64,000 nucleotides of DNA from a virus (Duplodnaviria > Caudoviricetes): IMG/VR virus record IMGVR_UViG_2912765049_000001, positions 32,001-96,000 of that record; one strand, given 5' to 3'. Below the pieces are notes generated by a model. It searched no databases, was not told the DNA's origin, and saw only the letters and a program-made list of their open reading frames with translations. Positions 28,320 through 59,000 of this stretch are shown here, one piece after another. Position 1 is the stretch's first letter; each line of letters begins with the position of its first letter. The translations under genes and the position numbers were made by a program.

Positions 28320-28746
28320 GCCGTAAGTCCGTTCCTTCGGGGCGGGCGGAATTACCCGCCGCGTTTTCGGGTGGCCAGGAACGTAGCTCGCCCTCGGGAA
28401 CAACATCAACGGCCTCTGAAAAAACGTGAATTCGGCATTCTACGGGGATATCGAGTGCTCTTTCGGACGCGGCCTCGCCGCCCGCGCCCAGGCTCGTCAC
28501 CACAGGTGGATGGCCTACGGCCGTCACCCCCGACAGCTTCCCCAGGTTCATCCTGTCCCAGGTTCGTCGGCAACCGTTTCCACCCGTGGGCCGCTGGAAT
28601 TTTCCACCCGTGGCCGCGCCGAAACCCCCGTACTCAGCCCCTGCTCCTCGGCTTTAGCGAGCCCACTTCTGAGAAAAAAGCGGAGCCAGCGCCAAGGCGG
28701 CCCGAAACCCGTTGAGCTGCCCGCCGCACCAGTGCCAAGGTGGCTC

Positions 28747-29490
28747 ATGAGCAAGAAGAACGTCCGGGTGCCGGACGACAGCGAACTCGTCCGGCTGGCT
28801 GCCGCGGCATGTGAGAGCGCCGCGAGCAAGCTGGAGGCGGCCACGCTGCTGCTGGGAGCGGAGCAGTGGGCGGAGGCGTTCTACAACGCCGCCCTCGGCT
28901 TCGAAGAACTGGGCAAGGCGCACCTGTGCCTGACCGTGGTGATGATCCCCACCCAGTACCGCAGCGACGTGACGCCTCGGGAGTTCTCCGAGATGTTCAA
29001 CGGCCACGGCGCCAAGGCGGCCTTCGGGCACCTCGTGCTGCGCAGCCTGGTCGACCGGGACGCACCGGTCGCCGTGACCGACATGCTGGCCGAGGCCGAA
29101 GCGGCGGCCGCGCAGACCAACACCACCAAGTTCCGGGGCCTGTACGTCGACCTGGGCGCAGACGGCACGCTGCTGCACCCGAGCGACGTCGTGGAGAGCG
29201 ACGCCCGCTGGATGGTCGACCGACTGCAGACACTGCACGAGTGGATGGGCCCGATGTGCGCCGAGGCCGGCCGGGACCCCGACTTCCTGGCGTTCTTGGT
29301 CCAGTTCCGGGAGAACATTGACGCCGACGCGATCGCGGACGCCCTCGTGGCCGACCCGGAAGACTGGCTGCGCCAGCTGCGCGCTGCGGTCCAGGCCCCG
29401 TTCACGGCACTGCCGTCCTGGATGTCCGACGCCCTCCTGGCTCTCCCAGGTACGGCAGAGCTGTCACGCAGCGAGGCCGCGCAGCCCTGA
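28747..29490 (+). CDS. abiV: AbiV-family abortive infection (HEPN-fold) protein
   Basis: ALGFEELGKA, FNGHGAK, NTTKFRGLYVD. Confidence 0.85.
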   Translation: MSKKNVRVPDDSELVRLAAAACESAASKLEAATLLLGAEQWAEAFYNAALGFEELGKAHLCLTVVMIPTQYRSDVTPREFSEMFNGHGAKAAFGHLVLRSLVDRDAPVAVTDMLAEAEAAAAQTNTTKFRGLYVDLGADGTLLHPSDVVESDARWMVDRLQTLHEWMGPMCAEAGRDPDFLAFLVQFRENIDADAIADALVADPEDWLRQLRAAVQAPFTALPSWMSDALLALPGTAELSRSEAAQP

Positions 29491-32701: not shown

Positions 32702-33376
32702 GTGGAGAGCTTCTTTCAGCGGGTCGAGCAGGCGTGGCCGGCGGGACGCCGTGATCTTCACTGGCACCTGCTGCCCGCCCCGGCCACGGAGGCGGTGGCG
32801 CTCGGCAGGCCGTATCTCGGCCTGACCCTGACCCGCGGCCTGCACCGGGTCATACCCGAGTGGATGCACTGCACCGTTCTGCACGCCATCGGTGCCGACG
32901 TCGACAACGACCCGGCTGTCCGCGCCGGTATCGATCTTCTCGTCGACGACGTCACCCGCCGAGTCGCCGATGTCGAACCGTTCACGCTCACCTTCGGCCG
33001 GCCAGCCATCGCCCGGTCCGCGATCGAGGCGCCCGGCTCGCCGGATCGCCCGCATCAAACCCTCGTCGAGCACGTCATGGCGGCCCACCGCGAGCTGTGG
33101 GGCGACGCACACCTGCTGTCCCCCAGCAAGGCCCCCCACATCTCCCTCGCCTACGGCGGCGAGGACGCCGAAGGCATCGACCCGGACCAGCTCAACTCCC
33201 AGCTCGCCGACATCGAGGACGATCACGCGGTGGACGTGTACGTGGACCGCCTGCACCTGGTCGCCCAGCGGCACGACGGCGCCCGCATCACCTGGCAGCC
33301 GCTCGCCGAAGTCACGCTGAAGGGCGTCGACGACGAAGCCTTCCTCGACAGCATCATGGCCGAGCTGGACAACTGA
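32702..33376 (+). CDS. 2H phosphoesterase (2'-5' RNA ligase family)
   Basis: Two HxT/S motifs: MHCTV, PHISLAY. Confidence 0.85.
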   Translation: MESFFQRVEQAWPAGRRDLHWHLLPAPATEAVALGRPYLGLTLTRGLHRVIPEWMHCTVLHAIGADVDNDPAVRAGIDLLVDDVTRRVADVEPFTLTFGRPAIARSAIEAPGSPDRPHQTLVEHVMAAHRELWGDAHLLSPSKAPHISLAYGGEDAEGIDPDQLNSQLADIEDDHAVDVYVDRLHLVAQRHDGARITWQPLAEVTLKGVDDEAFLDSIMAELDN

Positions 33377-33403: not shown

Positions 33404-34258
33404 TCAGGTCGCAGGTACGAGCTGGGCCGTCACGCCGGTGGGATGCAGGAACTGCCGGGCACCGCGCAGTGTGGTGCGCAGATTCTGCTGGGTCGCCCGG
33501 CTGTCGAGGCGTACGTCGAGGGCGCCGAGAAGTGTGCTGTTGGCCCGCAGGCCCTCGGGCAGCCGGGAGGCGTCGAGGCCGTCACGGCGGGCGATGAGGA
33601 TGCCGAGCTCGTGACGGCTCACCGCGTCGGACCCTGCGAGATGGTGGATGCCGGCCGCGTCGCACGACGCCAGTTCGACAAGGGCGGCGGCCAGGTCGGT
33701 GACGTGCACCGGGCAGCGGATGTCGTCGGTGAACAGGGCGCCGTCGCGGGTGCCGGAGGCGAGTTCGTGGACGACGCGCTCATGGACCGAGCGCCCTTGG
33801 CCGATGATCAGCGAGGTGCGGGCGACAGCGGCCTTCGGGTACACGGCGAGGACCCCGGTCTCCGCCGCCGCTTTCGCCGCTCCGTACGGGGTGACGGGGT
33901 CGGGGAGGAAGGTCTCGTCGTAGTGGACTCGGGTACCGGAGAACACTGCGTCGCTGGAAACGTGGACCAGGCGGCTGCCGTGCGTTGCTGCGGCCATCGC
34001 GACCCGGATGGGGCCCTCCGCCGTCGCCGCCCAGTCGTCTTTGCGGCTTGCTGTGTTGATGACGAGATCCGGGCGCACCTCCGCCATGACGGCGTCCAGG
34101 CGTCCGGCATCCCGCAGATCGAGGGGGTACCACTCGGCTTGGGAGGCGTCGCCGGGCTTGGTCGCGTACGTCGCGGCTGTGGTGTGCCCGGCCGCTCTCG
34201 TCTGCCGGATCAGCTCGGCCCCTAGGAAGCCGCTGCCGCCGATGATCAAAGCTCTCAT
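33404..34258 (-). CDS. RmlD-like NAD(P)-dependent sugar-nucleotide reductase (extended SDR)
   Basis: GGSGFLG, HVSSDAVF, YGAAK, RTSL. Confidence 0.9.
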   Translation of the reverse strand: MRALIIGGSGFLGAELIRQTRAAGHTTAATYATKPGDASQAEWYPLDLRDAGRLDAVMAEVRPDLVINTASRKDDWAATAEGPIRVAMAAATHGSRLVHVSSDAVFSGTRVHYDETFLPDPVTPYGAAKAAAETGVLAVYPKAAVARTSLIIGQGRSVHERVVHELASGTRDGALFTDDIRCPVHVTDLAAALVELASCDAAGIHHLAGSDAVSRHELGILIARRDGLDASRLPEGLRANSTLLGALDVRLDSRATQQNLRTTLRGARQFLHPTGVTAQLVPAT

Positions 34259-34376
34259 GGGCGACACGGTAGACCGGACCCGGTGGGCACCGGCGGAGGC
34301 GGACGCCGCTGGTTCGGGTGTCCGCCTCCGCCGTCGACGTACCGGATCTGACCGCGCGGCCGGCCGCGCGCCGGGG

Positions 34377-34838
34377 CTACGTGTGAGGCTGCCAGACGTA
34401 ACGGACGTCTGGCTCACGCTCGTCGTTGCGCCGCCCGTCCGTCCGCTCGGCCTCTATGAAGCCGTGCCGTTCATAGAACCGCCGCGCCGGCATGTTGACC
34501 TGGAACGTCCATAGCGTCAGCCCGTCTGGCTGCTCCTGCTTGGCCAGGGCCATGAACCGATCGCCCAGCCCCCGCCCACGCCACGCTGGGTCGAGGTAGA
34601 GCTGCTTCAGCTCCACGCCGTTGAGCACCAGGACCCCCACCACACGGTCCCCGGTGACCGCCACCCAGGTCTCGTAGCGCGGCACCAGCACGCGTAAGAA
34701 CCAGTCCCGCACTTCGGCGTCGCTGTGTGCGCAACGCACTGACGGCAGCGCGGCGTTGAAGGAACGCAGCCATACGTCGGCGGCGGGGAACGCGTCGGCG
34801 GAGCCTGCACGACGGAGGACGACGGCGTCACTGTTCAC
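34377..34838 (-). CDS. GNAT N-acetyltransferase
   Basis: QLYLDPAWRGRGLG, NMPARRFYERHGF; TTA at 34695-34697. Confidence 0.9.
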   Translation of the reverse strand: MNSDAVVLRRAGSADAFPAADVWLRSFNAALPSVRCAHSDAEVRDWFLRVLVPRYETWVAVTGDRVVGVLVLNGVELKQLYLDPAWRGRGLGDRFMALAKQEQPDGLTLWTFQVNMPARRFYERHGFIEAERTDGRRNDEREPDVRYVWQPHT

Positions 34839-36207: not shown

Positions 36208-36255
36208 CGGGGCCGGGGAACAAGCCTCAGAGGCTAGCGCCGTTCCCCGGCCCCG
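36208..36255. terminator. Intra-operon stem-loop
   Basis: 14-bp perfect arms CGGGGCCGGGGAAC between two co-oriented genes. Confidence 0.55.
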
Positions 36256-36259
36256 TAGT

Positions 36260-37510
36260 TCAGGCTTTGTCGGCGCGGAAGTTCAGCAGCTGCTCCAGCT
36301 CACTGATGGCGTCGGCGGCCGTCTGCCGTACGACCACGTCACCGGTCTGCGGTGCCTCCAGCGGGTACTCGAACCAGGAACCGTCCGGACGGGGGAATCC
36401 CTCCGGGTCGACGATGAACACCTGGAGTCCGGCCTCGCGGGCCCGCTTGGCCACCTGCCGCCGGTCGGCGTGCAGCCCGATCACGACCAGGGCCTTGGCG
36501 TCGGGGTGGAAGGTGACCGGCGGGATCCGCTGGTCGTAGCGGCGCATGAACTGCTCCTCGAACCCGGCGCGGGCGCCGAGCGCGTCGAAGTTGTTCGTGA
36601 TGAACGGGCCGACCATGTGCCCGGCCTCCTCCATGCGCTTGAGCGCGTGCAGGGCCGGGGTGACCTCGGCTTCGAAGCAGGCCCGGTACATGTCCGACAG
36701 CTCGGCGACCTTGTCCTCGGTGTTGAGGAGCATCTCCGCGAGCAGCGGGTCCCGCCCCGGTGCCAGGACGAACGTGAAGCCCTTGCGGAGCTGCTCGTCC
36801 TCGATCTCGTTGACGTGGTAGATCTCGTGGAGCCGGTGCAGCGGCGGAATGCCGGCCTCGTAGGAGACGCCGCAGCCGACCTCGACCTGGAACGGCAGGA
36901 AGTCCGTGAGCTGCGCCAGGTTGTCGGCGTAGACCGGCTGTCCGGGGGTGTCCTTGACCCGGACACCGTGGCTCAGGACCTCCCACGGCCGGCGGCGGAT
37001 CGCCCTCGGCGGGTACGTGTTGACGGAGGTGAACGTGGTGTCGATGACCTGGTAGTCCTCCGGAAGCCGACGGCCCGCCCGCAGATCCTCCGGGTGCTCC
37101 TCGAGGCGAATCATGTGGACGCGCAGGTCGCCCAGTTCGAAGCGGCCCGGCCCCGTCTGCTTCCAGCCGCCCTCGGCCAGCATGGCGTGGTTCTGCTCCC
37201 ACGCCTCGTCGATCTCGGCCTGCGGCGCCGCCACAGAGTGGTACACGTACATCTGCTGCATGGCCAGCGCCGGCGCCGCGGTGGTGTCCACCAGGCCGTA
37301 CTGGTGCCAGTAGTGGACGATGCGGCGGCGTGCGTCACCTTCGCCCGTCCAGCCGGAGTTGGAGGCGGTCTCCTTCTGCTGGGTGCGCCGCCAGATGCCC
37401 TCCTCCACGAAGCGGGGCCGGTCCGCGTTCACCCCGTAGTAGTCGTGCCACTTGCTGAGCTGCTCCTCATCGAGCTGGTCGATGACCGTGACGGGAAACT
37501 GCACCTGCAT
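36260..37510 (-). CDS. Atypical SIR2/sirtuin-fold NAD-binding protein with unknown N-terminal domain
   Basis: GCGVSYEAGIP, TPALHALKRM, ITNNFDALGARAG, LVVIG; no HG motif or Zn module. Confidence 0.7.
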   Translation of the reverse strand: MQVQFPVTVIDQLDEEQLSKWHDYYGVNADRPRFVEEGIWRRTQQKETASNSGWTGEGDARRRIVHYWHQYGLVDTTAAPALAMQQMYVYHSVAAPQAEIDEAWEQNHAMLAEGGWKQTGPGRFELGDLRVHMIRLEEHPEDLRAGRRLPEDYQVIDTTFTSVNTYPPRAIRRRPWEVLSHGVRVKDTPGQPVYADNLAQLTDFLPFQVEVGCGVSYEAGIPPLHRLHEIYHVNEIEDEQLRKGFTFVLAPGRDPLLAEMLLNTEDKVAELSDMYRACFEAEVTPALHALKRMEEAGHMVGPFITNNFDALGARAGFEEQFMRRYDQRIPPVTFHPDAKALVVIGLHADRRQVAKRAREAGLQVFIVDPEGFPRPDGSWFEYPLEAPQTGDVVVRQTAADAISELEQLLNFRADKA

Positions 37511-37577: not shown

Positions 37578-38870
37578 CTAGCTGAGGGCGGCCACCGCGG
37601 CGGTGAGCGCGGCGGTCAGGAAGTCGATGTCCTCGCCGCTGGAGTTCAGCGGGGGCGCGACGACCAGGCCCTCGCTGCGCGGGTCACCGGCTCCGGTGAA
37701 CGGGTAGAAGAAGACGCCTTGCCGCTCGCACTCCTCCATCAGGGGCCAGAGCAGGCCAGGGGTGACCTCCACTCCGTACAGGTGGCCGAGGCCCCGTACG
37801 TCCCGCACGACCGGCTGTCCGGTCAGGGGCCGCAGGCGCGCCCCGAGCTGTTCTCCGCGCGCCTGGAAGGCGTCGAAGTCCATGGATTCCAGCTCGTCCA
37901 GGACCCCGAGGCAGGCCGCCGCCTGCAGGGGGTGGGTGGCCATGGTGCCCATCGCGGGCAGCGGGTCCGCGCCTTCGCGGCGCAGCAGCGGTGCGAGCTC
38001 GGGCGACACGAGCACCGCACCCACACTGGTGTAGCCGGCGCCGAGGCCCTTGGACAGGATGCACAGGTCGGGATCGGCGCCGTCCCAGTGGTTGCTGGCC
38101 AGGGGGGTGCCGGTGCGCCACAGCCCGGTCAGGACTTCGTCGTGGATGACGAGGACGTTGCGTTCCCGGCAGATCTCCTTGACGCGCCGGAGGTATCCGT
38201 CGGGCGGCACGTAGGCGCCGCCGGTGGTGCCGTTGACGGGTTCCAGGAGGACGGCGGCGACGTTCTCCGCTCCCCTGCTGTCGATCGCCTTCGCCACCTC
38301 GTCGGCGCACGAGGCGTCGCACGAGCCCGCTGCGTGGTGGTGGGTCGGCGGGTAGGGCGCCGGGAAGGCCGGGCCGAGGCCGAGCGCGTCCTCCGGGCGC
38401 GGGCGCCGGGCGTGGTTGCCGGCGAGCCCGAGGGTGAGCGCGCTCATCCCGTGATAGCTCAGGGTGGAGGTCAGGATGTCGCCGCGCCGCTTGCCTCCGC
38501 GGACGCGCGCGATGTTGCGGGCCAGCGCGACGGCGACCTCCACGCCGAGCGTCCCGCACGTGGCCAGTGCGATGGAGTCCTCTGGACGGCCCACTGCGCG
38601 GCACAGTCGGTTCATCAGCTCCAGTTGGGTGTGGGGCCGTACGACGGCGGCGCCGCCGAACGAGGAACGGGGGAACTGCTGCTCGATGCGGGAGAAGACC
38701 TTGGGGCTGCCGTGGCCCACGTTCACGCAGAGGAGGCCGCTCGATCCGTCGAAGATGCGGCGGCCGTCAGCGAGGTGGAGCCAGGGACCGCTCGCCGTCA
38801 CGACGTCGAGGTCGGGTAGTGGGCGGGATGAGGTCAGGAGCCGTTCGCGACTGGATAAGTACCGATCCAC
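37578..38870 (-). CDS. Class III PLP-dependent aminotransferase
   Basis: SYHG, AVLLEP, HDEVLTGLWRTG, DLCILSKGL, RGLG; TTA at codon 5. Confidence 0.95.
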   Translation of the reverse strand: MDRYLSSRERLLTSSRPLPDLDVVTASGPWLHLADGRRIFDGSSGLLCVNVGHGSPKVFSRIEQQFPRSSFGGAAVVRPHTQLELMNRLCRAVGRPEDSIALATCGTLGVEVAVALARNIARVRGGKRRGDILTSTLSYHGMSALTLGLAGNHARRPRPEDALGLGPAFPAPYPPTHHHAAGSCDASCADEVAKAIDSRGAENVAAVLLEPVNGTTGGAYVPPDGYLRRVKEICRERNVLVIHDEVLTGLWRTGTPLASNHWDGADPDLCILSKGLGAGYTSVGAVLVSPELAPLLRREGADPLPAMGTMATHPLQAAACLGVLDELESMDFDAFQARGEQLGARLRPLTGQPVVRDVRGLGHLYGVEVTPGLLWPLMEECERQGVFFYPFTGAGDPRSEGLVVAPPLNSSGEDIDFLTAALTAAVAALS

Positions 38871-39022
38871 GAAAGAAGTCCCTTCTTGGGTGTGCGCATT
38901 GGGGCGCACGGGATCACGGCGGGTCGGTTCATGTGCGGTGGGTGTCCGGGTGTGCGTCGAGCGCGTCCGGTGATGACGAGCGCGACCACTCACGCCCGGA
39001 GAGCTGTCTGTCAGCTGTTCCT

Positions 39023-39253: not shown

Positions 39254-40670
39254 ATGGCGACAGTGACCCGCTCGCGCCGCGCGGCGATCCAGCGGGAGGC
39301 CGTACAGATCCGGATGCGGTGCCAGCGCTCGGGACATTCGACCGAGCGCACCGTGGCGGCGATCCGCGCGAGTCTGCCCGAGGTCTCTGCGCTCGAGGCG
39401 TGGCGGCTGGCGCTGGGCTGGTCACGGGCGGACACCGTCACCCAAGTCGCCGCGCTCTACCGGGCCGACGGGTTACAGCCCCCGGGCCTTTCGGAGTCGA
39501 TGCTGTGCCGCTGGGAACATGATCAGGAACGGCCGGGAGCGGAATACGCCGTGATGCTGTGCCGGGCCTACGGAGCACGGCTCGAACACCTGGGCCTGGG
39601 CCGTTGGGCCGGTGAAGGCGCTGGCCTTCGGTACCGTCTCCCGGAGCCCGTCGCGTGGGTGTCCGGCCCGCGGGAAGAGATGGAGCCGATGACCACTGAC
39701 GCCGGCCTTCCGGCCGTACGAGAATCTCTGCAGCTCGCCCTCCTCGCCGATCCGCAGGGCAGTCCGCTCGCGGCCCACTTGGCGGAGGCCGCTGTCGAGC
39801 ACTACGACCTCAACTACTCCAAGCACCCGCCGCAGACCTTGTTCAAGGAGATCCGCGACACCAGGGCCCTGCTCATGCCCGTGATGCAGGCCGCCGGCAG
39901 CACCCCCCCACACCGTCGAACTGCAGCGGCAGGTGGCCCGGCTGTCCGCACTGCTGGGCAACCTTGCCTTCCACCTCGACGACACGACCGGCGCGCGGAC
40001 CCATCTGGGTACCGCGGCCACCTACAGTGAGCGAGTGGGTGATGCGCGCCTGGTGGCTTGGGCGTGGGGCGCGCTGAGCTTGGTGGCCCGGTCCACCAAG
40101 CGGTACGAGCTGGCCTTGTCCCACGCCCAACGTGGCGCTGCCCAGGCCCCCGCCGGGCTCGTACGCGCGCAACTGCACGCCTGGGCTCTGCTGCCCTCCC
40201 TGGCGGCGCTCGGGCGCGGTCCGGAAGCGGACGCCGCGCTTGCGACCGCCATGCACGAACTGGAGACCGACGGCACCGGATCCGCGCCCGGCCGGTTCGG
40301 CTTTGACGAACCGGAACTTGCGCTGCACCAGGCCGAAGCCCACCTAGCGCTGGGCCGCGCCGAGCAGGCCGCGGCCCGGGCCGAAGCCTCCGCCGGCGGC
40401 TGCATCCTCGCCACGCCTGGCTGGGCAGCCGCCACCTTGGTCCTCGCCCGGGCCGAGGCCGCAGAACGCCCCGAGGATGCGGCCAGCCGCGCCCTGGATG
40501 TCCTCGACCGCGTTCCCCCTGCCCGGCTGCGCTCGACCGCCCGCGCCCGGCTCTCGCGCCTCGACGGCCAGCTGGCGGCGAGGACGGCGGGCCCCGTGGC
40601 CGACCTGCACGAAAGGCTGCAGCTGCTGCCTCCGCCCGTCGACGCCCACGGAGGCTCGGCCACAGCCTGA
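39254..40670 (+). pseudogene. XRE-family regulator with TPR-like C-terminus, frameshifted at a C7 run
   Basis: LEAWRLALGWS...SESMLCRWE...LCRAYG; removing one C at 39903-39909 joins the two ORFs; TTA at 39473. Confidence 0.8.
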
Positions 40671-41668: not shown

Positions 41669-42295
41669 TCAGCCGCGCCCGACCGCGACGAGCGCCTCGG
41701 CCAGGGCGGACTGGACGGCACCGACGTACGCCTGGAAGGCGGCCGTACGGTTGCCGCGGTTCCCACGGGACAGGTCACCGCCGACGAAGAACGCCGCCCG
41801 CTGAGCGGTGCTGATCTCCAATTGCACGCCCGCCTTGCGGGTGTTCTGATTGCAGATGTTCTCCGGGGCGCCGCCGTCGAGCTCCGGGGAAGCGAGCTGC
41901 ACCACGAACCCCGCCTGGGACAGCGCCAGCCCCACGCGGTCGCGCAGCGGGTAGTCCAGGCCGCCGAGGTTCGTCAGCGGCGCGGTCCCGGCGCAGCCGT
42001 GCCAGGACACGGTGTGCGTGGCCGCCCGGGCGAGCGCCAGGGCGTTGGGCTCGTCGAAAGCGGTGCTGGTGATGTGCAGCTCGGCGTTGCCCGACGCCTT
42101 CATGCCGTCGAAGACGTACAGGTCGTGGATCCCGCTGGCCGCGGCCTCAGCGAGTTCGCCCGTTCCCTGCTCGATGCCGCCGCCGTGGATGGCCAGGTGG
42201 AGCAGCGTGGAGACGGGCGACCTGCGCCAGTTGCGCTGGTAGTCGAGCCCCTCGAGGTGCTCGTGGGCCAGGTCCGTGTACGAGGTGTACGGCAT
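41669..42295 (-). CDS. Poly-gamma-glutamate hydrolase family (PghP/YjqB-like)
   Basis: HGGGIEQGT, LHITSTAFDEP, SWHG, NICN, GVQLEIS. Confidence 0.9.
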   Translation of the reverse strand: MPYTSYTDLAHEHLEGLDYQRNWRRSPVSTLLHLAIHGGGIEQGTGELAEAAASGIHDLYVFDGMKASGNAELHITSTAFDEPNALALARAATHTVSWHGCAGTAPLTNLGGLDYPLRDRVGLALSQAGFVVQLASPELDGGAPENICNQNTRKAGVQLEISTAQRAAFFVGGDLSRGNRGNRTAAFQAYVGAVQSALAEALVAVGRG

Positions 42296-42849: not shown

Positions 42850-44052
42850 TCAGGTGGTTGCGGTGAAGGCGTGCCGGGCGGCCAGCCGCTTGAGCGAGGC
42901 GAGGCCGGGGACGCCGTCGGCGGCGGAGCCGGTGTAGGAGCCGCCGGCCTTGCTGCGCTGCCAGGCGGCGTACGCGGTGACGGTCTTGGAGCCGAAGGAG
43001 CCGTCGGCGAACTCGCGCTTCAGGAGGCCCTCGGCGACCAGGGCGTCCTCGACGATGCGGACCTCGGTCGGGTAGGTGGTGTGTCCCTCGGCGGCCGGGA
43101 CGTCCTTCTTCGCCGCGGCGACCAGGTGGGCCACGCTGACCTTTGGCTTGGCCGGGGTGGGCGCCGGGTCGGCCGGGGCGGTCGCCTTGTACAGGACCTT
43201 GACCGTGCTGATCGCGCCCGGGTCCTGGTGGTCGTTGCCCGGAACGTCGCCGTGCGAGAAGTGGCCGCCCTTGGACTGCCAGACGCTGCGCGAGCGCGCC
43301 TTGCCCGCCCCCGGGTACTTCGCCGGGGGCCCGGCCGGGAAGACGTCCGGCACGCCCCAGGAGCGGGCCGCGGACAGGATCTTCTGCCAGCCCGGCTTCT
43401 TCGCCGGGTCCCAGCCGTTGGTCCACGGGCTCTTGGCGTAGCCGAGGACCTCGATCTGGATGCAGACGCGTCCCTCGCGATTGGTGCGGCGGGTGCCGTC
43501 GTTGCGCAGCGCCCGGCCGCTCTGGTTGAGCGGGCCGAACTGCCCGACCCGGTCGGTCACGGGGCAGTAGATGAGCTGCGGTTCGGAGGCGACCCGGATC
43601 AGGTACGAGCCGACCGACTCGAGGTACTTGCCGCCGGCCGGGGACTCGGTGCTGTGGTGCACGACCCGCGGGGGGTTGCCAGGGGTGTCCATCGCGCCGC
43701 CGATGGACCCGTCGCCGAGCCGGATCGCGCCGGAGATCCACACGGTGCCGGTGGCACCTCGCGGCAGCTCGTCCGCACCGGGCAGGTCGCCGGTGAGCGC
43801 GCCGACGGCCGGTTCGGGGTCCGGGCGCCGGATGATGAACGGCTCGGCACCCACCGGCTCGTACCAGTCCAGGTCACCGTCGTCGCGCAGCACGAACACG
43901 GTGCCCGGGCGACTGGAGTGCTCCCGGGTGAAGCGCGGCACGGTGTCGATCTCGGCGATGGCGCGGGCGGTGTCGACGTGCGCCTGGTCGACCTCGCCGC
44001 AGTAGGTGACGGACTGGTTGGGGTGAACGACGGCAGCGTGGTAGGTGGGCAT
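42850..44052 (-). CDS. Endolysin: amidase-2-like plus peptidoglycan-binding domain
   Basis: VVHHSTE, IQIEV, HGDVPGNDHQDPG; DGSFGSKT...ADGVPG. Confidence 0.85.
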   Translation of the reverse strand: MPTYHAAVVHPNQSVTYCGEVDQAHVDTARAIAEIDTVPRFTREHSSRPGTVFVLRDDGDLDWYEPVGAEPFIIRRPDPEPAVGALTGDLPGADELPRGATGTVWISGAIRLGDGSIGGAMDTPGNPPRVVHHSTESPAGGKYLESVGSYLIRVASEPQLIYCPVTDRVGQFGPLNQSGRALRNDGTRRTNREGRVCIQIEVLGYAKSPWTNGWDPAKKPGWQKILSAARSWGVPDVFPAGPPAKYPGAGKARSRSVWQSKGGHFSHGDVPGNDHQDPGAISTVKVLYKATAPADPAPTPAKPKVSVAHLVAAAKKDVPAAEGHTTYPTEVRIVEDALVAEGLLKREFADGSFGSKTVTAYAAWQRSKAGGSYTGSAADGVPGLASLKRLAARHAFTATT

Positions 44053-50788: not shown

Positions 50789-53071
50789 TTACTTGGTGTA
50801 GGTGACGCGCAGTTTCGGCGGGTACGTCTGCCCGTACCCGCGGGCCCTCCCGTAGAAGGTCTTGTCGGTGGTGTTGGGGTCCAGCGCGATGCCCCGCCAC
50901 GTGGTGGAGTCGAACACTGCGGTGATGTCGACCCACTTGCCCTGGTTGCGTTTCCAGGCGATGGTCTGCGCCTCGGTGTCGCAGGAGAACTTCGCCGGCC
51001 GGGAGGCGTGTTTGTGGGCGCGGATGACGGCCTTGCCGCCGTCCGCGTAGTACCAGTGGTCGAAGTACAAATAGATCTCGGCTTTGTTGATCTTCGCGCC
51101 GGACAGGTCGGTGGCCAGGGCCGCGGGGAAGCCGATCAAACTGGCCTGCACGCCGTTGTTGGCGGAGTAGTAGCCCTGCAGGCAGGAGTTGCCGTAGTAG
51201 GCGTTGTAGCCGGAGCGGCTCGCGTACGACCCGGACCAGGAGGCCGCGTAGGTCTTGGTGTACGTCTGCACCGGTTCGGCGCCGGTGCCGCCGCCGGTGT
51301 TGTACACGCCGGTCAGCGGGATCTCCGGGCCGATGTCCTCGACGTAGAAGACGTTGGTGCGGCCGGTGGTGCCCAGGCCGAGTTCGAGGGTCTGCCCACT
51401 GGTGCCGCCGGAGTTCTGGAACGAGAGCAGCAGGCGGTGCAGGCCGGGACCCAGGGTGGTGGCGCTCGTGACGTGTTCCAGGTCGACTCGCTGGAAGCGG
51501 CCGGTGTGCGACGGCGTGAGGATCTCGGTTTCCCGCAGGGTCGAGGTGAGCGTGGGCTTCGCGGTGCCCCCGTCACGCAGGTAGAGGTGGATCTCGCCAT
51601 CGGTGGCGTTGTCGAGGTCGGCGGTGGCCCGGAAGACGATCCGGTACAGGCGGCCTGCCTCGGCGGTGAAGGGCAGCTCCAGATAGCCCATCTCGCTGCC
51701 CGTTGTGGTGACGGTGGTGCCCGGGGCGGCGCGCGCGATGATTCCCTTGGGCCCGGCCCCGAACAGGTCGCTGACGGGCTCCCCGCCCACGGTCAGCTCC
51801 CCGGCGACGTTGACGTCGTTGAAGCCGGCGGATCCGTCGGTGTCGATCGTCGCCACCGGCTCGCCGTTGTTGCGCAGGGTCAGGTACTGGGGTGCCCCGG
51901 TGACCAGGGACACCGCCTCCTCGCCGGTCTCGTCGAACAGGCGCACCCCCTGGGGGCCGATCTCCGCGCGGGCGCCGCCGGTGACCCGACCGAAGATCGT
52001 GTGGACTTCGGAGTTGTCGAACACGACCCAGCCGGCCGTGGCGGCGGAGGACTCCAGGCACAGCACGGCCTGGGTGGTGCCCTGCGGGGCGGCGACCTGG
52101 CCGGTGATGCGCTGCCACATGCCGGGGATGGGGGTGGTCTTCTCCACCACGCCGTAGCCGAGGACCGTGCCGACGGCGTTCTCCCACCGGGCGAGGATCT
52201 TCACGCCGCTCGCGTTGAGGTCGTCGGAGGTGAGGATGTCGACGGCCATGTAGAGCTGGACGCCGGCGAGGATGGGCACCCGGGCCAGCGGCAGGGTGAA
52301 GTAGGTGGGGGTGTCGGCCAGACAGTCTGCGCGGACGCCGATGCCGGTGCGGTTGCCGGGGGCCAGCGACCACGGGGCGCCGGCCGCGGCGATCGCGGCC
52401 GCGGTGGCCGCGCCCTCGAAGCCGGGGTCGGGCATCAGGTTGGTGCCCTGCCCGACGGCGATCTGGTCGGGGGTGACCGAACCGACCGCCAGGTGCGGTG
52501 TGATGATGGCGCCGACCGCGATGTGGCCCTGCTGGATGACGCCGGTGCCGACGTCCGTGGAGGCCGCGCGGCGCGCGGCGGTCTGCACGGCCGCGGAGGG
52601 CAGGCTGGGGGTACCGGAGGTGTTGACCGCGACCAGGCGCACCCAGATCGGGTCGTAGTAGTTGGTGGCGATGGTCACCGACGCGCCGGACGCGGCCTCG
52701 ATCGTGGCCGCCGGCCACATCACGTCCGGCTCGGCGTCCGCCGAGGTCATCAGGTGCACCTGGACGCGGGAGAGGTCCAGCGGGGCGGCATCCGCGTCGG
52801 TGAACGCGCCGTCCCAGGTGATGCGGACGCCGTTGAGGGCGGGTTCGGTCTGCGGGGCGGACGGGACGGGCGGGCGGGGGCCGTTGACCGCGACCACGCC
52901 GGAAGTGCCGTCGCCCTGCTGGCCGATGACGGCCCGCAGCGAGCCGCCGACGTCGTAGACCTCCAGGGCGGTGTCTTCCAGGGAGGCGTGGCTGAGGCGG
53001 CTGGCGCGCTGGAGGCCGGTGATCTGCCGTTCGATGCGGGCGAGGCGGGAGCCGATGTCGAGGCTGCTCAC
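50789..53071 (-). CDS. Minor tail / receptor-binding protein
   Basis: Position after hub gene; FN3-like and CBM-like (NLMPDPGFE) segments. Confidence 0.75.
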   Translation of the reverse strand: MSSLDIGSRLARIERQITGLQRASRLSHASLEDTALEVYDVGGSLRAVIGQQGDGTSGVVAVNGPRPPVPSAPQTEPALNGVRITWDGAFTDADAAPLDLSRVQVHLMTSADAEPDVMWPAATIEAASGASVTIATNYYDPIWVRLVAVNTSGTPSLPSAAVQTAARRAASTDVGTGVIQQGHIAVGAIITPHLAVGSVTPDQIAVGQGTNLMPDPGFEGAATAAAIAAAGAPWSLAPGNRTGIGVRADCLADTPTYFTLPLARVPILAGVQLYMAVDILTSDDLNASGVKILARWENAVGTVLGYGVVEKTTPIPGMWQRITGQVAAPQGTTQAVLCLESSAATAGWVVFDNSEVHTIFGRVTGGARAEIGPQGVRLFDETGEEAVSLVTGAPQYLTLRNNGEPVATIDTDGSAGFNDVNVAGELTVGGEPVSDLFGAGPKGIIARAAPGTTVTTTGSEMGYLELPFTAEAGRLYRIVFRATADLDNATDGEIHLYLRDGGTAKPTLTSTLRETEILTPSHTGRFQRVDLEHVTSATTLGPGLHRLLLSFQNSGGTSGQTLELGLGTTGRTNVFYVEDIGPEIPLTGVYNTGGGTGAEPVQTYTKTYAASWSGSYASRSGYNAYYGNSCLQGYYSANNGVQASLIGFPAALATDLSGAKINKAEIYLYFDHWYYADGGKAVIRAHKHASRPAKFSCDTEAQTIAWKRNQGKWVDITAVFDSTTWRGIALDPNTTDKTFYGRARGYGQTYPPKLRVTYTK

Positions 53072-54168
53072 GCGGCGGCCCCGTAGTGGAAGGAGTCGGC
53101 CCGGGCGAGGCTCACGGTGACGCTCTCGCCGTCGCTGCCGCCCGGGCGGACGCTCCAGCCCATGACCCGCATCCAGCCGGTGAAGGACACCCAGTCGTTG
53201 TGGACCCGGGTGTAGACGTCGTCGCCCACCTGGAAGGAGCCCAGCGGGGCGGCCGGGTGGTCGGGGCGGATGCGGATCTGTTCGATGGTGCCGCGGATCT
53301 GCCGGCGCTTGCGGTCGGCGGCGGCCCGCTTGGCGAGGATGTCGGTGCCCTTGACCTCCGGCAGGGCCAGCACGGTCTCCATGCGCAGCCGTCCGTCGCG
53401 GACGCTGTCGATGTGCCGGCGCTTGTTGCGGCCCTCGCCGGAGCCGGTGGCAATGACGGTGTTGGCGAACTCGTCGGCGGAGCGCGGGACGGGCGGGGCG
53501 TCGAGGACGTTGATGCCGGTGGAGAAGGACACGTCGGTGCGGCGCGTGCCCAGCCGCGGGTAGCCCAGGCGCAGCCTGCGCACGATGGCGCCGTTCGCGC
53601 CCCAGGCGGTGTCGCACGTGTAGTCCGGGGAGTCGTCGGCGGAGACCAGGTCGTCGACGGCGTCACCGAGGACCGGCTCTTCCCACCAGGAGAACTTCAG
53701 CGGCTCGGCGGTCGTGCCGACCTTGGCGGTGGAGGTGGTGGGGTCCACGACGACGCCCAGGTTGCCGTCCGGCAGGGACTGCGCGTACGCCCAGACGTCC
53801 CGGATCACCTTGCAGGGGTCGGCGTTGACGTACGGGCCGCGGCCGTTGAGTTCGCCGTGGACGTCGTGGCGGCGCTGCAGGTACGACGACCAGCCGGCCG
53901 CCTCGAGGGAGAGGGTGCGGTCCTCGGGGGTGGCCTGCCACAGCAGTCCGCCCCAGCGCAGGTGCCCGTCGCGCTCGGCGTACAGCAGGACGTTGCCTTC
54001 GTCGGCGACGTCCGGCAGGGAGCGGGCGAAGCGCGGGGCGAGTTTGCCGGTCAGGGCGCCGGGCCCGTTGAGTTCGGGGCCGAACTCGACGTCGGTGAGG
54101 GGCACGTCCGGGCTGATGATCTCGCCGGTGAGGGCGTGCTGGGCGAGGTAGCGGTAGGCGGACGCCAT
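53068..54168 (-). CDS. Minor tail (baseplate hub-like) protein
   Basis: ELNGPGALTG, LRWGG, ANTVIATGSGEG, FQVGD. Confidence 0.8.
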   Translation of the reverse strand: MASAYRYLAQHALTGEIISPDVPLTDVEFGPELNGPGALTGKLAPRFARSLPDVADEGNVLLYAERDGHLRWGGLLWQATPEDRTLSLEAAGWSSYLQRRHDVHGELNGRGPYVNADPCKVIRDVWAYAQSLPDGNLGVVVDPTTSTAKVGTTAEPLKFSWWEEPVLGDAVDDLVSADDSPDYTCDTAWGANGAIVRRLRLGYPRLGTRRTDVSFSTGINVLDAPPVPRSADEFANTVIATGSGEGRNKRRHIDSVRDGRLRMETVLALPEVKGTDILAKRAAADRKRRQIRGTIEQIRIRPDHPAAPLGSFQVGDDVYTRVHNDWVSFTGWMRVMGWSVRPGGSDGESVTVSLARADSFHYGAAA

Positions 54169-55114: not shown

Positions 55115-56011
55115 CTACAGGGTGGGCCAGGCTGGCCGCCACGTGGCGGTCAGGCGGGCGGAGTTGGTGGGGTCGGTGGCGGTCCACCGCAGCTCGCTGA
55201 CGCCGGTGGGCAGCGTGAACGTGTCGATGCGGGAGGCGGCGGTCAGTGCCGTGGCGGCGTTGCCGCCGTTGCTGCGCAGCACGGAGCGCCAGGTGGGCCG
55301 GGTGTCGATCTCGATGAAGTCGCCCGGGTCGATGACGGTGTTGAGCTGCAGCACGCGGCCGGACTCGACGTGGGTAATGCGTGGGTTGGCGCACGGGCCG
55401 TAGATCCGCAGCACGGGCCAGGTCGGGGCCTTGCCGTCGACCTGGATCCAGCCGGGCCGGGTGGTGCCGTCCGGGCCTGGGTCGACGACGATGGGCGCGA
55501 CGACGGGCGCCGTGAACCCCCCGTCGGAGATCATGCCGAGCGGGATCGTGGCGTGCTGGGGGGTGTCGCTGTAGTAGAGGGGGTCGGCGGCGAGGAACTC
55601 GAGGTCGAGGGGCACCCAGCCGTTGACGAGCTGGGTCAGGTCCGGGTCGGCCTTGCGGAGCCGGCCGTTGAGGACACGGACGTCGCGGCCGGGGAACTTC
55701 AGCCGCAGTTCGGTGGTGGCGCCGCCGGTCAGGCGCAGCGCGGGGTCGTCGTGGACGTCCTGGATTGCGGCGAGGAGGTCGAGGGCGGCCACCTGGTCGC
55801 CGGGGGTTTTGATCGCGGCGTCGATGCGGACGGTGCGGCCGGTGTAGTAGTCCGCGCCGAGCCAGATGCCGTCCGCGCTGGGCGGGTCGACGTCGGCGGT
55901 GCGTACCTCGGCGCGGCCCAGGCCCTCGATGGCGGCAATGGGGACCGGGGTGCCGGTGCCGATGACGACGCCGCCCAGTTCGTGCTGGTGGTCCTTGAGG
56001 ATGGCGTTCAT
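55115..56011 (-). CDS. Distal tail (Dit-like) protein
   Basis: Directly after tape measure; FLAADPLYYS, PVLRIYGPCANPRI. Confidence 0.8.
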   Translation of the reverse strand: MNAILKDHQHELGGVVIGTGTPVPIAAIEGLGRAEVRTADVDPPSADGIWLGADYYTGRTVRIDAAIKTPGDQVAALDLLAAIQDVHDDPALRLTGGATTELRLKFPGRDVRVLNGRLRKADPDLTQLVNGWVPLDLEFLAADPLYYSDTPQHATIPLGMISDGGFTAPVVAPIVVDPGPDGTTRPGWIQVDGKAPTWPVLRIYGPCANPRITHVESGRVLQLNTVIDPGDFIEIDTRPTWRSVLRSNGGNAATALTAASRIDTFTLPTGVSELRWTATDPTNSARLTATWRPAWPTL

Positions 56012-59000
56012 CGGTGCTGCACCCCGCCTCGCTGAGCGCGGCGCAGCTGGTAGCCGACGGCAGCGGCGATCTGCTGTTCGGTGGCGCCGGGACGGTCGAT
56101 CTGGATGGTCTGGTTGCCGATCAGCGGGGCGGCCTGCTGAACGACGATGACCTGCACGCGGCCGGCCGCGGCGTCCTGCAGGCCGGTGAGGGCGTAGCCG
56201 AAGCGCCCGGCGACGTCGCCCAGGACGGCGGTGGCGCGGCGGCGTTTGCCGAGGGCGAGCGGCACGTACGCCTCGCCCTGCGTGCTCGGTTCGGCGAAGC
56301 GGACCAGGCCGCCCGAGGTCGCGTAGATGCCCTCGCGGATGCCGCCGTCGGCGTAGGCGAGGCCCTTGTTGGCCTTGGTGAGGTCGGCGAGCAGGCGTGT
56401 CGCGCGGGAGCCGAGGGCCTTCTTGATCTGAGCGGTGGCCCTGGTGGCCACCGTGATGATCTCGTCCTCGTCGAGGCCGGTCGCGTCCGCGATGGCGTGG
56501 ATGCCGGTGGTCTTCGACTTCGTCGCCCCGATGATCTTCACGAGGGTGGCGAGCTGCTCGTCCGAGAGCGTCTTGCCCGCCGCCTTGGAGGCGTCGTTGG
56601 CGGCCTTCGCCTTCTTCGGGCTCTTGACCGCCTGGGCCGCGAGGTCCTCGGCGTCCTGGTCGCCCTGCTCGGCCAGGCGCGCGGCGAGGTCGCCATAGCC
56701 GGAGGCGGCCAGTTTGGCCAGGTTCTGCTGGAAGGCGGTCTGGTCCTTCACGGCGCTCTTGAGCTGCCCGGTGTAGTCGCCCAGGCTCGCCTTGGACGCC
56801 TCGGCGAGGGCTTTGAGCTCCTTGGTCATCTGGCGGACGTACTTGCCGGAGCCGGTGGCCATCTTCCGGGTCAGCGCGACGCCGTCCTCGCCCATCTCCT
56901 CGAGGGCCTTGGCGACGTCGGTGCCGGCGCGGGCGGCGACGGTGGACAGGTCGCGGCGCCAGCGGGACATCGCCTTGGAGGACGCCTTCAGCTTCTTGAG
57001 GAAGATGTCGAGGCTGAAGTTGCCCTTCTTGTTCTGGGACTCGCTCGCGATCGACGACAGCGTGGTGTACGAGGCCGGGGTGTAGGAGAAGTCCGACAGG
57101 CCGCCGTCGGCGTACCAGTCGATCCCGGACGGGTCTCCGCCCAGGCGGCGCACGACCTCCTCGGTGATCCGGCGGGAACGGGGCCGCTTGGAGTGGGCGA
57201 AGGGGACGTATGCCTCCCCGTGAGTCTCGTCCTCCCCCCACACCCGCCAGGAGCCGCCCTTGGCGATCTGCGCGACGTGGTTCTCCTTGCGCATGCCGCC
57301 GTCGGCGTAGAAGTCGACGATCCCGCCGTCGGCCTGCTTGCGGACGTTGTCGGCCTGCTTGCGCAGCGCGTCGGCGAGGCTGGACGGGTCGGCGCCGAGG
57401 TTCGAGAAGACCGACACGTGCTTGGTGGTGATGGTGATCGACTTGTCGCTGAGCCGGTCCCGGGCGCCCTGGACCGCGGCGATGTTGGACAGGGCGGTGC
57501 CGGTCTTGGCGGTGACCTCCACGCTGCCGTCGGGCAGCGTCCGGGTGGTGAAGCCGACCTTGTTCAGGGCGTCCATCGCCGTCTTGTTCAGCGTCTTGAC
57601 GGTGACGGACTTCGCGCCGGGGGTGGCCTTGATCTTGGCGATCACGGAGTCGAGGCCGCCGACGGCGACGGCGGTCTTCGCGTCGACCTTGACGTCCTTG
57701 CCCGCGGGGACCGACGACAGGGCGCTGACGAGCAGGCCCAGTTCGGCACGGGCGCCCTGCGTGGGAGCGGTGATCTTGTATTCGCGGGTGCCGGGGATGA
57801 GCTCGATCGCGTAGCCGAGGTCCTCCAGCTCCTTCTTGGCCTGCTCCCCCAGCGCGTCGACGGTGATCGTGCGCTTGTCGGGGACGCGCGCGAACTCGGC
57901 CTGCACGGCGAGGAGTTCGGCCAGCGTCTGGTCGACTCCCTTGGTCTGCAGGAGGATCGACACCTGGCCGGGGATCAGACCCATCTGGTCGGCGACCTGC
58001 TGGGCCTGGGCGCCGGTGACGCCGTACTGGGCCAGCAGGTCCAGGGCCGACTTGCGGGCCTTGTCCATCTCGGTGCGCGCGGCCTGCAGGGACTGCGGCA
58101 GGTCCTTGCCCTGCTTCTGCGCGAAGTCGAACGAGGCGATCGCGGAGGACGCTGCGGCGTCGGAGATGTTGTTGAGGCTGTTGAACAGCTGCTGCCCGTT
58201 GCGGCTGGTCGTGTTGAGGGTGCCGTTGAGGCCGACGAGCTTCTTGCCGTAGTCGCCGGACTTCTTGATCTGGTCGTCGACGGCCTCGCTGGCGTTGAGG
58301 ACGGCCTCGTTGAGCCGGGCCTGGGCCGCCTGCAGGCTCACCGACCCGCCGGACAGCAGGTCGAGGGCGTCCTTCAGGGCGCGGGTGCGCTGGTCGGCGT
58401 CGGCGGTGCGGTCGGCGAGCGCGCCGACGGCCACCTTGAGCTTGTCGTACGCGCTCAGCGCCCGGCCGGAAGGATTCTGCGCCTCCGCGAGCCGCTTGGC
58501 GTCCTTGACGCCCTGCTCCATCTCGCCGCGCATCGACTTCAGCGCGTCGGCCGCCTTCTTGTACCGCTCGCCGGTGTCGGTGTACTCGAGCTTGCTGGCC
58601 TTGCCGGCGGCGTAGTCGACGTACTCCTTGTTGGCCTCGGCCAGGTCGCGGTACTTCTTCTCCAGAGCGGCGAGGCTGGTGCCCTGTCCGAGGTAGGCGT
58701 CGGTGAGGGTCCGCATGGAGACGCCGGATTCCTCCAGGACGTCGACCAGCTTGGTCTTGCTGTCGTGCAGCTTGTAGTCGAGGAGGGTCTGGGCCGCGGC
58801 GGCCCGCACGTTCTCGTCGATGACGCCGCCGGAGTCGCGCAGCGCCCGGGTCAGGTCGGCAATGCGCTCCTGGTGCTCGGCGGCGGCCTGGGCGGCCTTC
58901 TGCTGCTGGGCGGCGAGCAGTCCGAGGCCGACGGTGACGCCGGCGAGCGCCAGGCCCCAGGGCCCGCCCATCGCGCCCATCAGCCCGGTCATCGCGCCAC

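Follow-up and report, generated by a model that had tools for sequence, protein, structure and literature searches.

Within the 64,000-nucleotide stretch analysed here (the window), which covers positions 32001-96000 of the second replicon (contig C2, 151,949 bp) of genome G000, a minus-strand Streptomyces gene encodes a protein, P0001, in which a sirtuin-type domain is fused to an N-terminal domain of its own kind. As the models and alignments show, the predicted C-terminal part is a sirtuin-derived Rossmann domain that still has the NAD-contact motifs but no longer the Zn module or the catalytic His. The gene belongs to a module of a sirtuin-like protein, a UDP-glucose 6-dehydrogenase (UGDH) and NUDIX hydrolases; this context is the main new result of our work and gives the proposed chemistry a concrete frame. 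P0001 probably belongs to an undescribed nucleotide-sugar/NAD pathway. More specifically, and with a confidence that stays somewhat below an even chance, we suggest that P0001 might be a transferase that cleaves NAD, does not deacylate, and uses an acceptor derived from UDP-glucuronate, within a mobile UGDH/NUDIX module.

The open reading frame (ORF) of P0001 starts with ATG, is preceded at a distance of 7 nt by the Shine-Dalgarno (SD) sequence GAGGA and has a third-position GC content (GC3) of 0.92 in a genome and replicon of 71% GC, which argues for a real coding gene. Full-length homologs, about 410 aa long, numbered more than 220 in a word-indexed search; they stem from Streptomyces, Nonomuraea, Kitasatospora, Microbispora, Nocardiopsis and further genera and are annotated nearly throughout as "hypothetical protein". 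Searched exhaustively with phmmer, 1.84 billion cluster representatives yielded 242 relatives, down to about 28% identity, among which the complete proteins carry both domains. Scans of P0001 against Pfam, NCBIfam, PHROGs and PADLOC produced sub-threshold SIR2/CobB matches or none (13.6 bits against the Pfam sirtuin family PF02146, below its gathering cut-off of 24 bits; 15.8 bits against the NCBIfam CobB model, with a cut-off of 320). A phmmer search with the single sequence against PDB sequences yielded nothing useful, an ESM Atlas search with the whole protein returned its own family alone, and no description of the family or of the module was found in the searchable literature, PADLOC, Pfam or NCBIfam.

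Conservation was assessed in an alignment of 36 homologs, 45-89% identical to the query, and in a wider set of 67 homologs reaching down to 16% identity. About 90 columns of the narrower alignment are invariant, distributed over both domains and including 21 arginines. They form the motifs EEGIWRRTQ, RRR..HY, PFQVE.GCG.S.EAGIPPLH.LH..Y, NFD..ARAG, RRYDQ, GLHADRR and D.EG, and their invariance over 36 homologs indicates that they did not arise by chance. All motifs singled out by an earlier reading made from the letters alone (the sequence-only reading) were recovered at the expected places and belong to the invariant positions.

The AlphaFold2 (AF2) model of P0001 (predicted local distance difference test score, pLDDT, 86.3; predicted template modelling score, pTM, 0.85) was compared with solved structures using VIA-align. 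Residues ~189-416 matched PfSir2A (3u31) with Z 19.1 (root-mean-square deviation, rmsd, 4.3; 187 aligned residues), and the C-terminal half matched Sir2-Af1 (1ici) with Z 17.7 (rmsd 4.4; 193 aligned residues) and SIRT4 with Z 17.3, while other members of the superfamily scored lower (transhydrogenase domain III, dIII, Z 11.9; LOR/SDH 10.8; middle domains of thiamine diphosphate, ThDP, enzymes ~10). Foldseek aligned this half with Sir2Tm and Sir2-Af1 at E ~1e-6 (1.5e-6), and hhalign aligned it with the CobB of the same genome at E 4e-5 over residues 211-319. The AlphaFold and Foldseek check per domain that had been proposed with the sequence-only reading thus came out as SIR2-like for the C-terminal half. 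In the profile alignments with PDB sirtuins and with CobB, GCGxSxEAGIP pairs with GAGISxxSGIP, and TNNFD..ARAG with TQNxD..xAG. Invariant residues in and around the glycine loop are G212, C213, G214, S216, E218, A219, P222, L224 and H225; the loop is followed by PLH, where sirtuins have xFR. The N, F and D of NNFD are at least 90% conserved in the wider set.

The segment FMRRYDQRIPP had been said to stand in place of the catalytic HG and the CxxC module. Indeed, RRYDQ lies at the HG site, R323-Q327 are invariant among close homologs, R323 is nearly invariant family-wide, and residues 317-340 contain no conserved His in the 36-homolog alignment and in the alignment to CobB. With respect to His116 of CobB the alignment may be shifted by about 2 residues, which puts one of the residues R324 to D326 at the His position. 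Moreover, C213 and C278 are the only Cys residues of P0001, so that CxxC pairs are absent. From NxD to the following Rossmann strand P0001 has 38 residues, compared with 92 in the canonical CobB of the genome (L096), where the intervening stretch comprises ELHG and the four Zn-ribbon Cys (C124, C127, C149, C152) before the GTS strand; the ~54-residue deletion in P0001 takes out the Zn ribbon. Evidence from fold, profiles and conservation therefore backs the earlier proposal of a sirtuin fold devoid of catalytic His and Zn module. It also agrees with the claim that P0001 is not a lysine deacylase, since the loss of the Zn/peptide-binding module together with the His rules out ordinary lysine deacylation. 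A variation of the replacement motif was observed in a low-GC metagenomic contig (L095:2542-4953) with two tandem paralogs of 403 and 398 aa and, behind them, a GT4 glycosyltransferase gene: RRYDQ reads IRKFTEE in the second copy, so that the first Arg alone is family-wide.

The N-terminal domain, which is rich in arginine, is a confidently predicted fold without a solved relative. Folded alone from 67 sequences it reached an AF2 pLDDT of 95.9. Comparison with 48,161 chains in VIA-align gave a best Z of 5.8, below the noise level of the tool, and Foldseek returned no match at E<=1e-3 in PDB and BFVD. No Pfam or NCBIfam family was assigned and the named-cluster search of the ESM Atlas was empty. 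Structural rows for START/Bet v 1 and phage baseplate proteins, with template modelling (TM) scores of 0.1-0.25, were discarded. The description of this part as an unknown fused domain of ~190 aa thus stands, with a high-confidence model and without a convincing structural or family match. In the large phmmer search, and within the sensitivity of phmmer, the domain was found solely together with the SIR2-like domain. Its conservation falls only a little short of that of the sirtuin half (38-55% and 48-57% identity, respectively, among more distant homologs). Its invariant residues in the 36 homologs are W21, R31, R33, the segment EEGIWRRTQ (36-44), S52, W54, RRR (61-63), H66, Y67, W176 and R184. 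EEGIWRRTQ, which had previously been noted as conserved in appearance, proved to be invariant, and its W40, R42 and Q44 remain at least 90% conserved in the 67 homologs.

A separate observation concerns the stretch EEGIWRRTQ...SGW (37379-37450; residues ~21-54), which resembles the cofactor-loop segment that follows GIPxFR in sirtuins: the segments compared read E-D-G-L-W-R-K...S-G-F in Sir2-Af2 and G-L-W-R-R in the CobB of the genome, and HMMER aligned the two with a weak score. EEGIWRRTQ lies ~170 residues before the glycine loop and is a predicted beta-strand; the likeness may be due to chance or may be the relic of a rearrangement.

The association of P0001 with its dehydrogenase was followed in 80 loci from species-level genomes, which were searched with the proteins of the window. 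A UGDH-family gene lies directly downstream on the same strand in 79 of them, the exception being a contig that ends just past the sirtuin-like gene. Pairing with UGDH was also seen for metagenomic homologs of 34%, 34% and 30% identity, with the order reversed or with overlapping or abutting genes, and two distant homologs, one on an archaeal-looking and one on a bacterial contig, have no UGDH nearby. Aminotransferase genes occur in 18 of the 80 loci, before or after the sirtuin-like gene, whereas 62 lack them; a GNAT gene is present in 13 and an RmlD-like reductase gene in 12. Their presence in few loci points to a two-gene core, to which aminotransferase, GNAT and RmlD-like reductase are optional add-ons.

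NUDIX hydrolases accompany the module in 14 of the 80 loci, immediately upstream in seven and downstream in seven, and are also encoded in distant contigs. In one case nature has fused a sirtuin-like protein to a C-terminal NUDIX domain (P0134, 654 aa). A protein of 109 aa is encoded downstream of the UGDH in 15 loci; its resemblance to MazG, suggested by eye, received no support from Pfam, NCBIfam or a search of PDB sequences. For a recurrent upstream protein of 146 aa no family assignment was reached. An XRE-family helix-turn-helix (HTH) protein of ~410-470 aa stands beside the module in 56 of the 80 loci. Distant loci add a pseudomurein-type ATP-grasp ligase, a MurA-like enolpyruvyl transferase, a GT4 glycosyltransferase, a short-chain dehydrogenase/reductase (SDR) and, in L095, Sa_NUDIX, and a Pfam scan of 125 representatives of neighbour families revealed no consistent enrichment.

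The dehydrogenase of the window (P0002) looks like an ordinary member of its family. It has the three-domain architecture of Pfam, scores 416.9 bits against TIGR03026 (cut-off 189.8), is 48% identical to the chromosomal UGDH of the same genome and keeps the catalytic residues Cys264, Lys208, Asn212 and Asp268, which are invariant in the alignment; its scores are below the cut-offs of the AglM and TuaD equivalog models. Judged from these residues and from this identity, the cassette dehydrogenase most likely makes a UDP-uronate. A role of P0002 as an oxidiser of ADP-ribose was considered and set aside, as the active-site and UDP-domain motifs are those of an ordinary UGDH and in view of the identity to the chromosomal enzyme.

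Parts of the cassette appear to have been exchanged. Six five-gene loci (L036, L066, L067, L072, L073, L078) and two further loci without aminotransferase encode a dehydrogenase 83-88% identical to that of the window, next to a sirtuin-like protein of just 48-50% identity. The same six loci carry the aminotransferase on the other side of the sirtuin-like gene compared with L005-L016, and between the two five-gene arrangements dehydrogenase, aminotransferase and GNAT are 68-88% identical. These differences in identity and gene order imply that cassette parts have been reshuffled and indicate that the sirtuin-like gene was replaced or shuffled within an otherwise conserved cassette.

The features of the window are compiled in Table 1. 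The minus-strand operon runs from the aminotransferase through P0001, UGDH and GNAT to the RmlD-like reductase; the true start of the aminotransferase is probably internal to its longest ORF. A hairpin (36208-36255, minus strand) is located in the 86-nt gap between the genes of P0001 and the UGDH, with a stem of ~15 bp, an inner stem of 5 bp, a minimum free energy (MFE) of -39.3 kcal/mol (z -3.0 against shuffled sequences) and no T-run after it. It could be an attenuator, or a processing or stability element that sets the ratio of P0001 to UGDH. TTA codons are found on the minus strand at 38856-38858 (codon 46 of the longest aminotransferase ORF) and 34695-34697 (codon 48 of the GNAT gene), and there are none in the sirtuin-like, dehydrogenase and reductase genes. 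The divergent regulator gene of the window is split into two overlapping ORFs of 258 and 245 aa; its homolog in a 97%-identical locus of Streptomyces muensis (L005:6847-8262) is intact and encodes 471 aa.

Table 1. Positions of the sirtuin-like gene, its domains and motifs, the accompanying operon and phage-type genes in the window
Feature	Position	Strand	Basis or remark
Sirtuin-like gene P0001, 416 aa, stop codon included	36260..37510	-	ORF, translation, GC3, SD, homologs
N-terminal alpha/beta domain, residues 1-190	36941..37510	-	AF2, conservation
EEGIWRRTQ, residues 36-44, beta-strand in the AF2 model of the N-terminal domain	37379..37405	-	conservation
Sirtuin-type Rossmann domain without Zn ribbon (predicted), residues ~191-416	36260..36940	-	VIA-align, Foldseek, hhalign
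GCGVSYEAGIP, residues 212-222, counterpart of the sirtuin pyrophosphate-binding loop GAGxSxxxGIP	36845..36877	-	profile alignments
ITNNFDAL, residues 304-311, counterpart of sirtuin TQNxD, nicotinamide-ribose motif (N307, D309)	36578..36601	-	profile alignments
FMRRYDQRIPP, residues 321-331, where sirtuins have the strand with the catalytic HG at its end	36518..36550	-	alignments, conservation
GLHADRR, residues 345-351, at the sirtuin GTS strand/loop position, nearly invariant family-wide	36458..36478	-	conservation
UGDH paralog P0002, 440 aa	34851..36173	-	Pfam three domains; TIGR03026
Class-III (omega-type) aminotransferase	37578..38993	-	Pfam Aminotran_3 E 1e-65; NCBIfam
GNAT N-acetyltransferase	34377..34838	-	Pfam
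RmlD-like NDP-sugar reductase / extended SDR	33404..34417	-	Pfam RmlD_sub_bind E 2e-37; TIGR01214 below cut-off
Divergent XRE-family HTH regulator, TPR-like C-terminal half	39254..40670	+	Pfam TPR_12 on second ORF
Poly-gamma-glutamate hydrolase	41669-42295		
Endolysin	42850-44052		lysis gene
Tail protein	50789-53617		phage-type gene
Tape-measure protein	56008-61206		phage-type gene

The module is cargo of mobile elements, namely plasmids, a phage-like replicon and integrative mobilisable elements, and travels with a regulator of XRE or WhiJ type. The replicon studied here, whose ends showed no terminal inverted repeats, may represent either a phage-plasmid or a prophage-bearing plasmid. In most other loci the module adjoins genes for a relaxase, MobC/NikA, DUF3631 and DUF2637. 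Twelve PLSDB plasmids carry it, among them a 140-kb linear plasmid of S. globisporus, on which the five-gene form lies next to a WhiJ/DUF397 pair. It was present in 38 of 400 genomes of other Streptomyces species, with some copies truncated or interrupted by stop codons, and a phylum-wide sample of 400 genomes contained no copy; tblastn detected no P0001 homolog in 50,697 deposited phage records.

In the sequence-only reading the surroundings had been held not to fit a typical defence context. This was too strong, since AbiV/HEPN, GmrSD, Mrr and UvrD/PDDEXK genes adjoin the module in several genomes. The module may have a role in phage or mobile-element conflict. Near the operon of the window, genes for an AbiV-type HEPN protein (28426-29490, plus strand; Pfam E 4e-12) and a 2H (LigT-like) phosphoesterase (32702-33376, plus strand; E 8e-8) were noticed; neither recurs beside the module in the other 79 loci. 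Substrates of the 2H phosphoesterase family are of the 2',3'-cyclic or ADP-ribose-1''-phosphate type.

According to the mechanism that we tentatively favour, P0001 would bind NAD+ in the manner of a sirtuin and displace nicotinamide. Such a displacement is favoured by the retained Asn and Asp and by a kinship with true sirtuins that is much closer than that with the redox members of the superfamily. The ADP-ribosyl group would then be passed to a small nucleotide-sugar acceptor instead of acyl-lysine; the near-obligate UGDH, the NUDIX neighbours and fusion, and the neighbours in distant loci that handle UDP-sugars or carboxylates, such as the MurA-like protein, the pseudomurein-type ATP-grasp and the GT4, argue for an acceptor of this kind rather than a protein. 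It might be held by the N-terminal domain and by the arginines of RRYDQ and HADRR, and a polyanionic ligand would agree with the large number of invariant arginines in the two domains. The most plausible acceptor would be UDP-glucuronate or a derivative supplied by the partner dehydrogenase. NUDIX, and perhaps also the 109-aa protein, might trim pyrophosphate bonds, and the aminotransferase, GNAT and RmlD-like reductase of the window might further decorate the sugar by amination, acetylation and reduction. As the module comprises no exporter or membrane protein, the product is expected to act inside the cell, where it would probably serve the mobile element in conflicts with phages or other elements. 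Sirtuins of class M (SirTM) have Gln137 with Arg192 in place of the catalytic His and work as ADP-ribosyltransferases, not deacylases (PMC4518038), a precedent for ADP-ribosyl transfer by a sirtuin that lacks the His. New chemistry such as ADP-ribosyl or sugar transfer, as anticipated by the sequence-only reading, is plausible, being compatible with this precedent, the pairing with UGDH and the NUDIX links.

Several observations weigh against this mechanism. The FR of the sirtuin cofactor loop is LH in P0001 and the GTS loop is LHADRR, which suggests that the bound dinucleotide may not be NAD+. Ordinary sugar-nucleotide tailoring, with no transfer of ADP-ribose, would also explain the linkage to a normal-looking UGDH. 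The acceptor need not be UDP-glucuronate, as distant archaeal and bacterial homologs occur without UGDH. Furthermore, no macrodomain or ADP-ribosylhydrolase partner was seen among the scanned window and the recurrent neighbours of the loci, and the neighbours beyond the module are heterogeneous.

The SIR2-fold domain might instead use NAD(P) for hydride transfer and oxidise, epimerise or decarboxylate UDP-glucuronate, an alternative that we consider unlikely, although the fold would be compatible with a redox use of the cofactor. Within the same fold superfamily, deoxyhypusine synthase and transhydrogenase domain III employ NAD(P) as hydride-transfer cofactor. The keto sugar formed would be processed by aminotransferase, GNAT and RmlD-like reductase, in an Arn-like route to an acetamido pentose or uronate. 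Indeed, the combination of UGDH, aminotransferase, N-acyltransferase and SDR mirrors known routes to UDP-glucuronate-derived amino sugars (Ugd/ArnA/ArnB), transhydrogenase dIII and LOR/SDH-type domains match the model at Z 10.8-11.9, and the loss of the His and of the FR residues fits an altered chemistry. However, the fit to true sirtuins is much closer (Z 17-19), and P0001 still has the Asn and Asp used to place the nicotinamide ribose for cleavage. In addition, the aminotransferase is of class III whereas the DegT type is usual for NDP-keto-sugars, most loci have no aminotransferase at all (62 of 80), and the NUDIX fusion is left unexplained. The absence of catalysis altogether is improbable in our estimation. 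A degenerate sirtuin with a mere binding function, for NAD(H) or a UDP-sugar, that serves the neighbouring dehydrogenase as regulator or scaffold would account for the lost classical His and for the strict one-to-one adjacency with UGDH, but the ~90 invariant positions, many of them polar or charged and located in both domains, suggest an active site, the NUDIX fusion and the tandem paralogs fit enzymes better, and some homologs have no UGDH neighbour.

Two other explanations start from the mobile setting. P0001 might be an abortive-infection effector, whose N-terminal domain senses infection and activates a SIR2 NADase, with UGDH (turning NAD+ to NADH) and NUDIX (cleaving NADH or ADP-ribose) adding to the depletion of NAD(H). 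SIR2 domains are common NAD-depleting effectors, and ThsA and Avs5 are among the structural matches (Z 9.1-9.7). The module is mobile cargo of patchy occurrence (38/400 Streptomyces species) with some decayed copies and an adjoining XRE regulator, and potential defence genes lie in the window (AbiV/HEPN) and elsewhere (GmrSD, DUF1173, Mrr, UvrD/PDDEXK, CHAT; Sa_NUDIX in L095). Nevertheless, P0001 lacks the catalytic His on which NADases of the ThsA and DSR types depend, no PADLOC model matched any of ten proteins of the window, a result that says little on its own, the N-terminal domain is nearly as conserved as the catalytic one, unlike typical sensors, the tailoring enzymes (aminotransferase, GNAT, reductase, ATP-grasp, MurA-like) point to biosynthesis, and the wider neighbourhood is not consistently defence-like; we regard this explanation as rather doubtful. 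Conversely, the module might shield the mobile element from host immunity by binding, modifying or destroying ADP-ribose-derived immune signals or by rebuilding NAD pools. Its carriers (a phage-like replicon, plasmids and mobilisable elements) and the nucleotide-cleaving nature of NUDIX enzymes would suit such a function, and metabolic counter-measures of phages against NAD-based immunity are known (10.1101/2024.02.11.579819, PMC13464706). We nonetheless give counter-defence only a very slim chance, because the search of 50,697 phage records found no homolog, a UGDH partner plays no part in the known pathways of NAD reconstitution, and known sponges and NARP enzymes show no resemblance; NARP3 (PMC13464706) is unrelated.

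Known uses of the sirtuin fold are those of lysine deacylases, protein ADP-ribosyltransferases and immune NADases, and a clade without Zn module and catalytic His would add a fourth use of this scaffold. The combination of a private substrate domain, a nucleotide-sugar dehydrogenase and NUDIX would tie NAD chemistry to UDP-sugar chemistry. It is conceivable, though not likely, that the sirtuin-like protein, its private UGDH and NUDIX constitute a new mobile immune or counter-immune system that joins NAD-derived ADP-ribose to a UDP-glucuronate-derived sugar, or makes another hybrid nucleotide, by means of a sirtuin scaffold that needs neither His nor Zn and of a substrate domain of new fold. 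With two to five genes the module is small; it is mobile and unannotated, and it was found in about one tenth of the Streptomyces species sampled as well as on 12 sequenced plasmids.

Compared with known systems, P0001 shares with canonical sirtuins (Sir2Tm, Sir2-Af1/Af2, PfSir2A, CobB; PF02146) the topology of the Rossmann core (Z 17-19), the GxGxSxxxGIP loop, a helical insert with a P..H motif, the (T)xNxD..RAG motif and an acidic residue after a late beta-strand. It differs from them in the absence of the Zn ribbon, in RRYDQ for HG, LH for FR and LHADRR for GTS, and in the additional N-terminal domain of 190 aa. SirTM proteins (SpySirTM, 5a3a) resemble P0001 in the sirtuin fold (Z 12.6), in the absence of the catalytic His and in a fixed operon with functional partners. 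In SirTM a Gln-Arg pair takes over the positioning of the ribose and the enzyme ADP-ribosylates rather than deacylates; its Zn domain is kept, it modifies the protein GcvH-L and it is paired with a macrodomain and LplA2 (PMC4518038). P0001, by contrast, has no Zn domain, a different replacement motif, and a UGDH as partner, and no macrodomain was found among the scanned window and recurrent neighbours.

The defence SIR2 NADases (ThsA, DSR1/2, SIR2-HerA, Avs5 SIR2-STAND, KomC) likewise combine the SIR2 fold with a second, non-sirtuin domain, and are encoded by mobile, patchily distributed genes, with defence-like neighbourhoods in some genomes as for P0001. Structurally they are less similar to it (Z 9.0-9.7), P0001 is missing their catalytic His, and its partners are sugar-nucleotide enzymes, not TIR, HerA, pAgo or STAND; none of these, nor SLOG, was adjacent to P0001 in the examined loci. 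Pathways of the Ugd/ArnA/ArnB type share with the operon of the window a UDP-glucose dehydrogenase, an aminotransferase, an N-acyltransferase and an SDR. Unlike these pathways, the operon has a class III instead of a DegT/ArnB-type aminotransferase and encodes no ArnA-like decarboxylase, glycosyltransferase or flippase. The constant partner of the dehydrogenase is here the sirtuin-like protein, which has no counterpart in the Ugd/ArnA/ArnB pathways.

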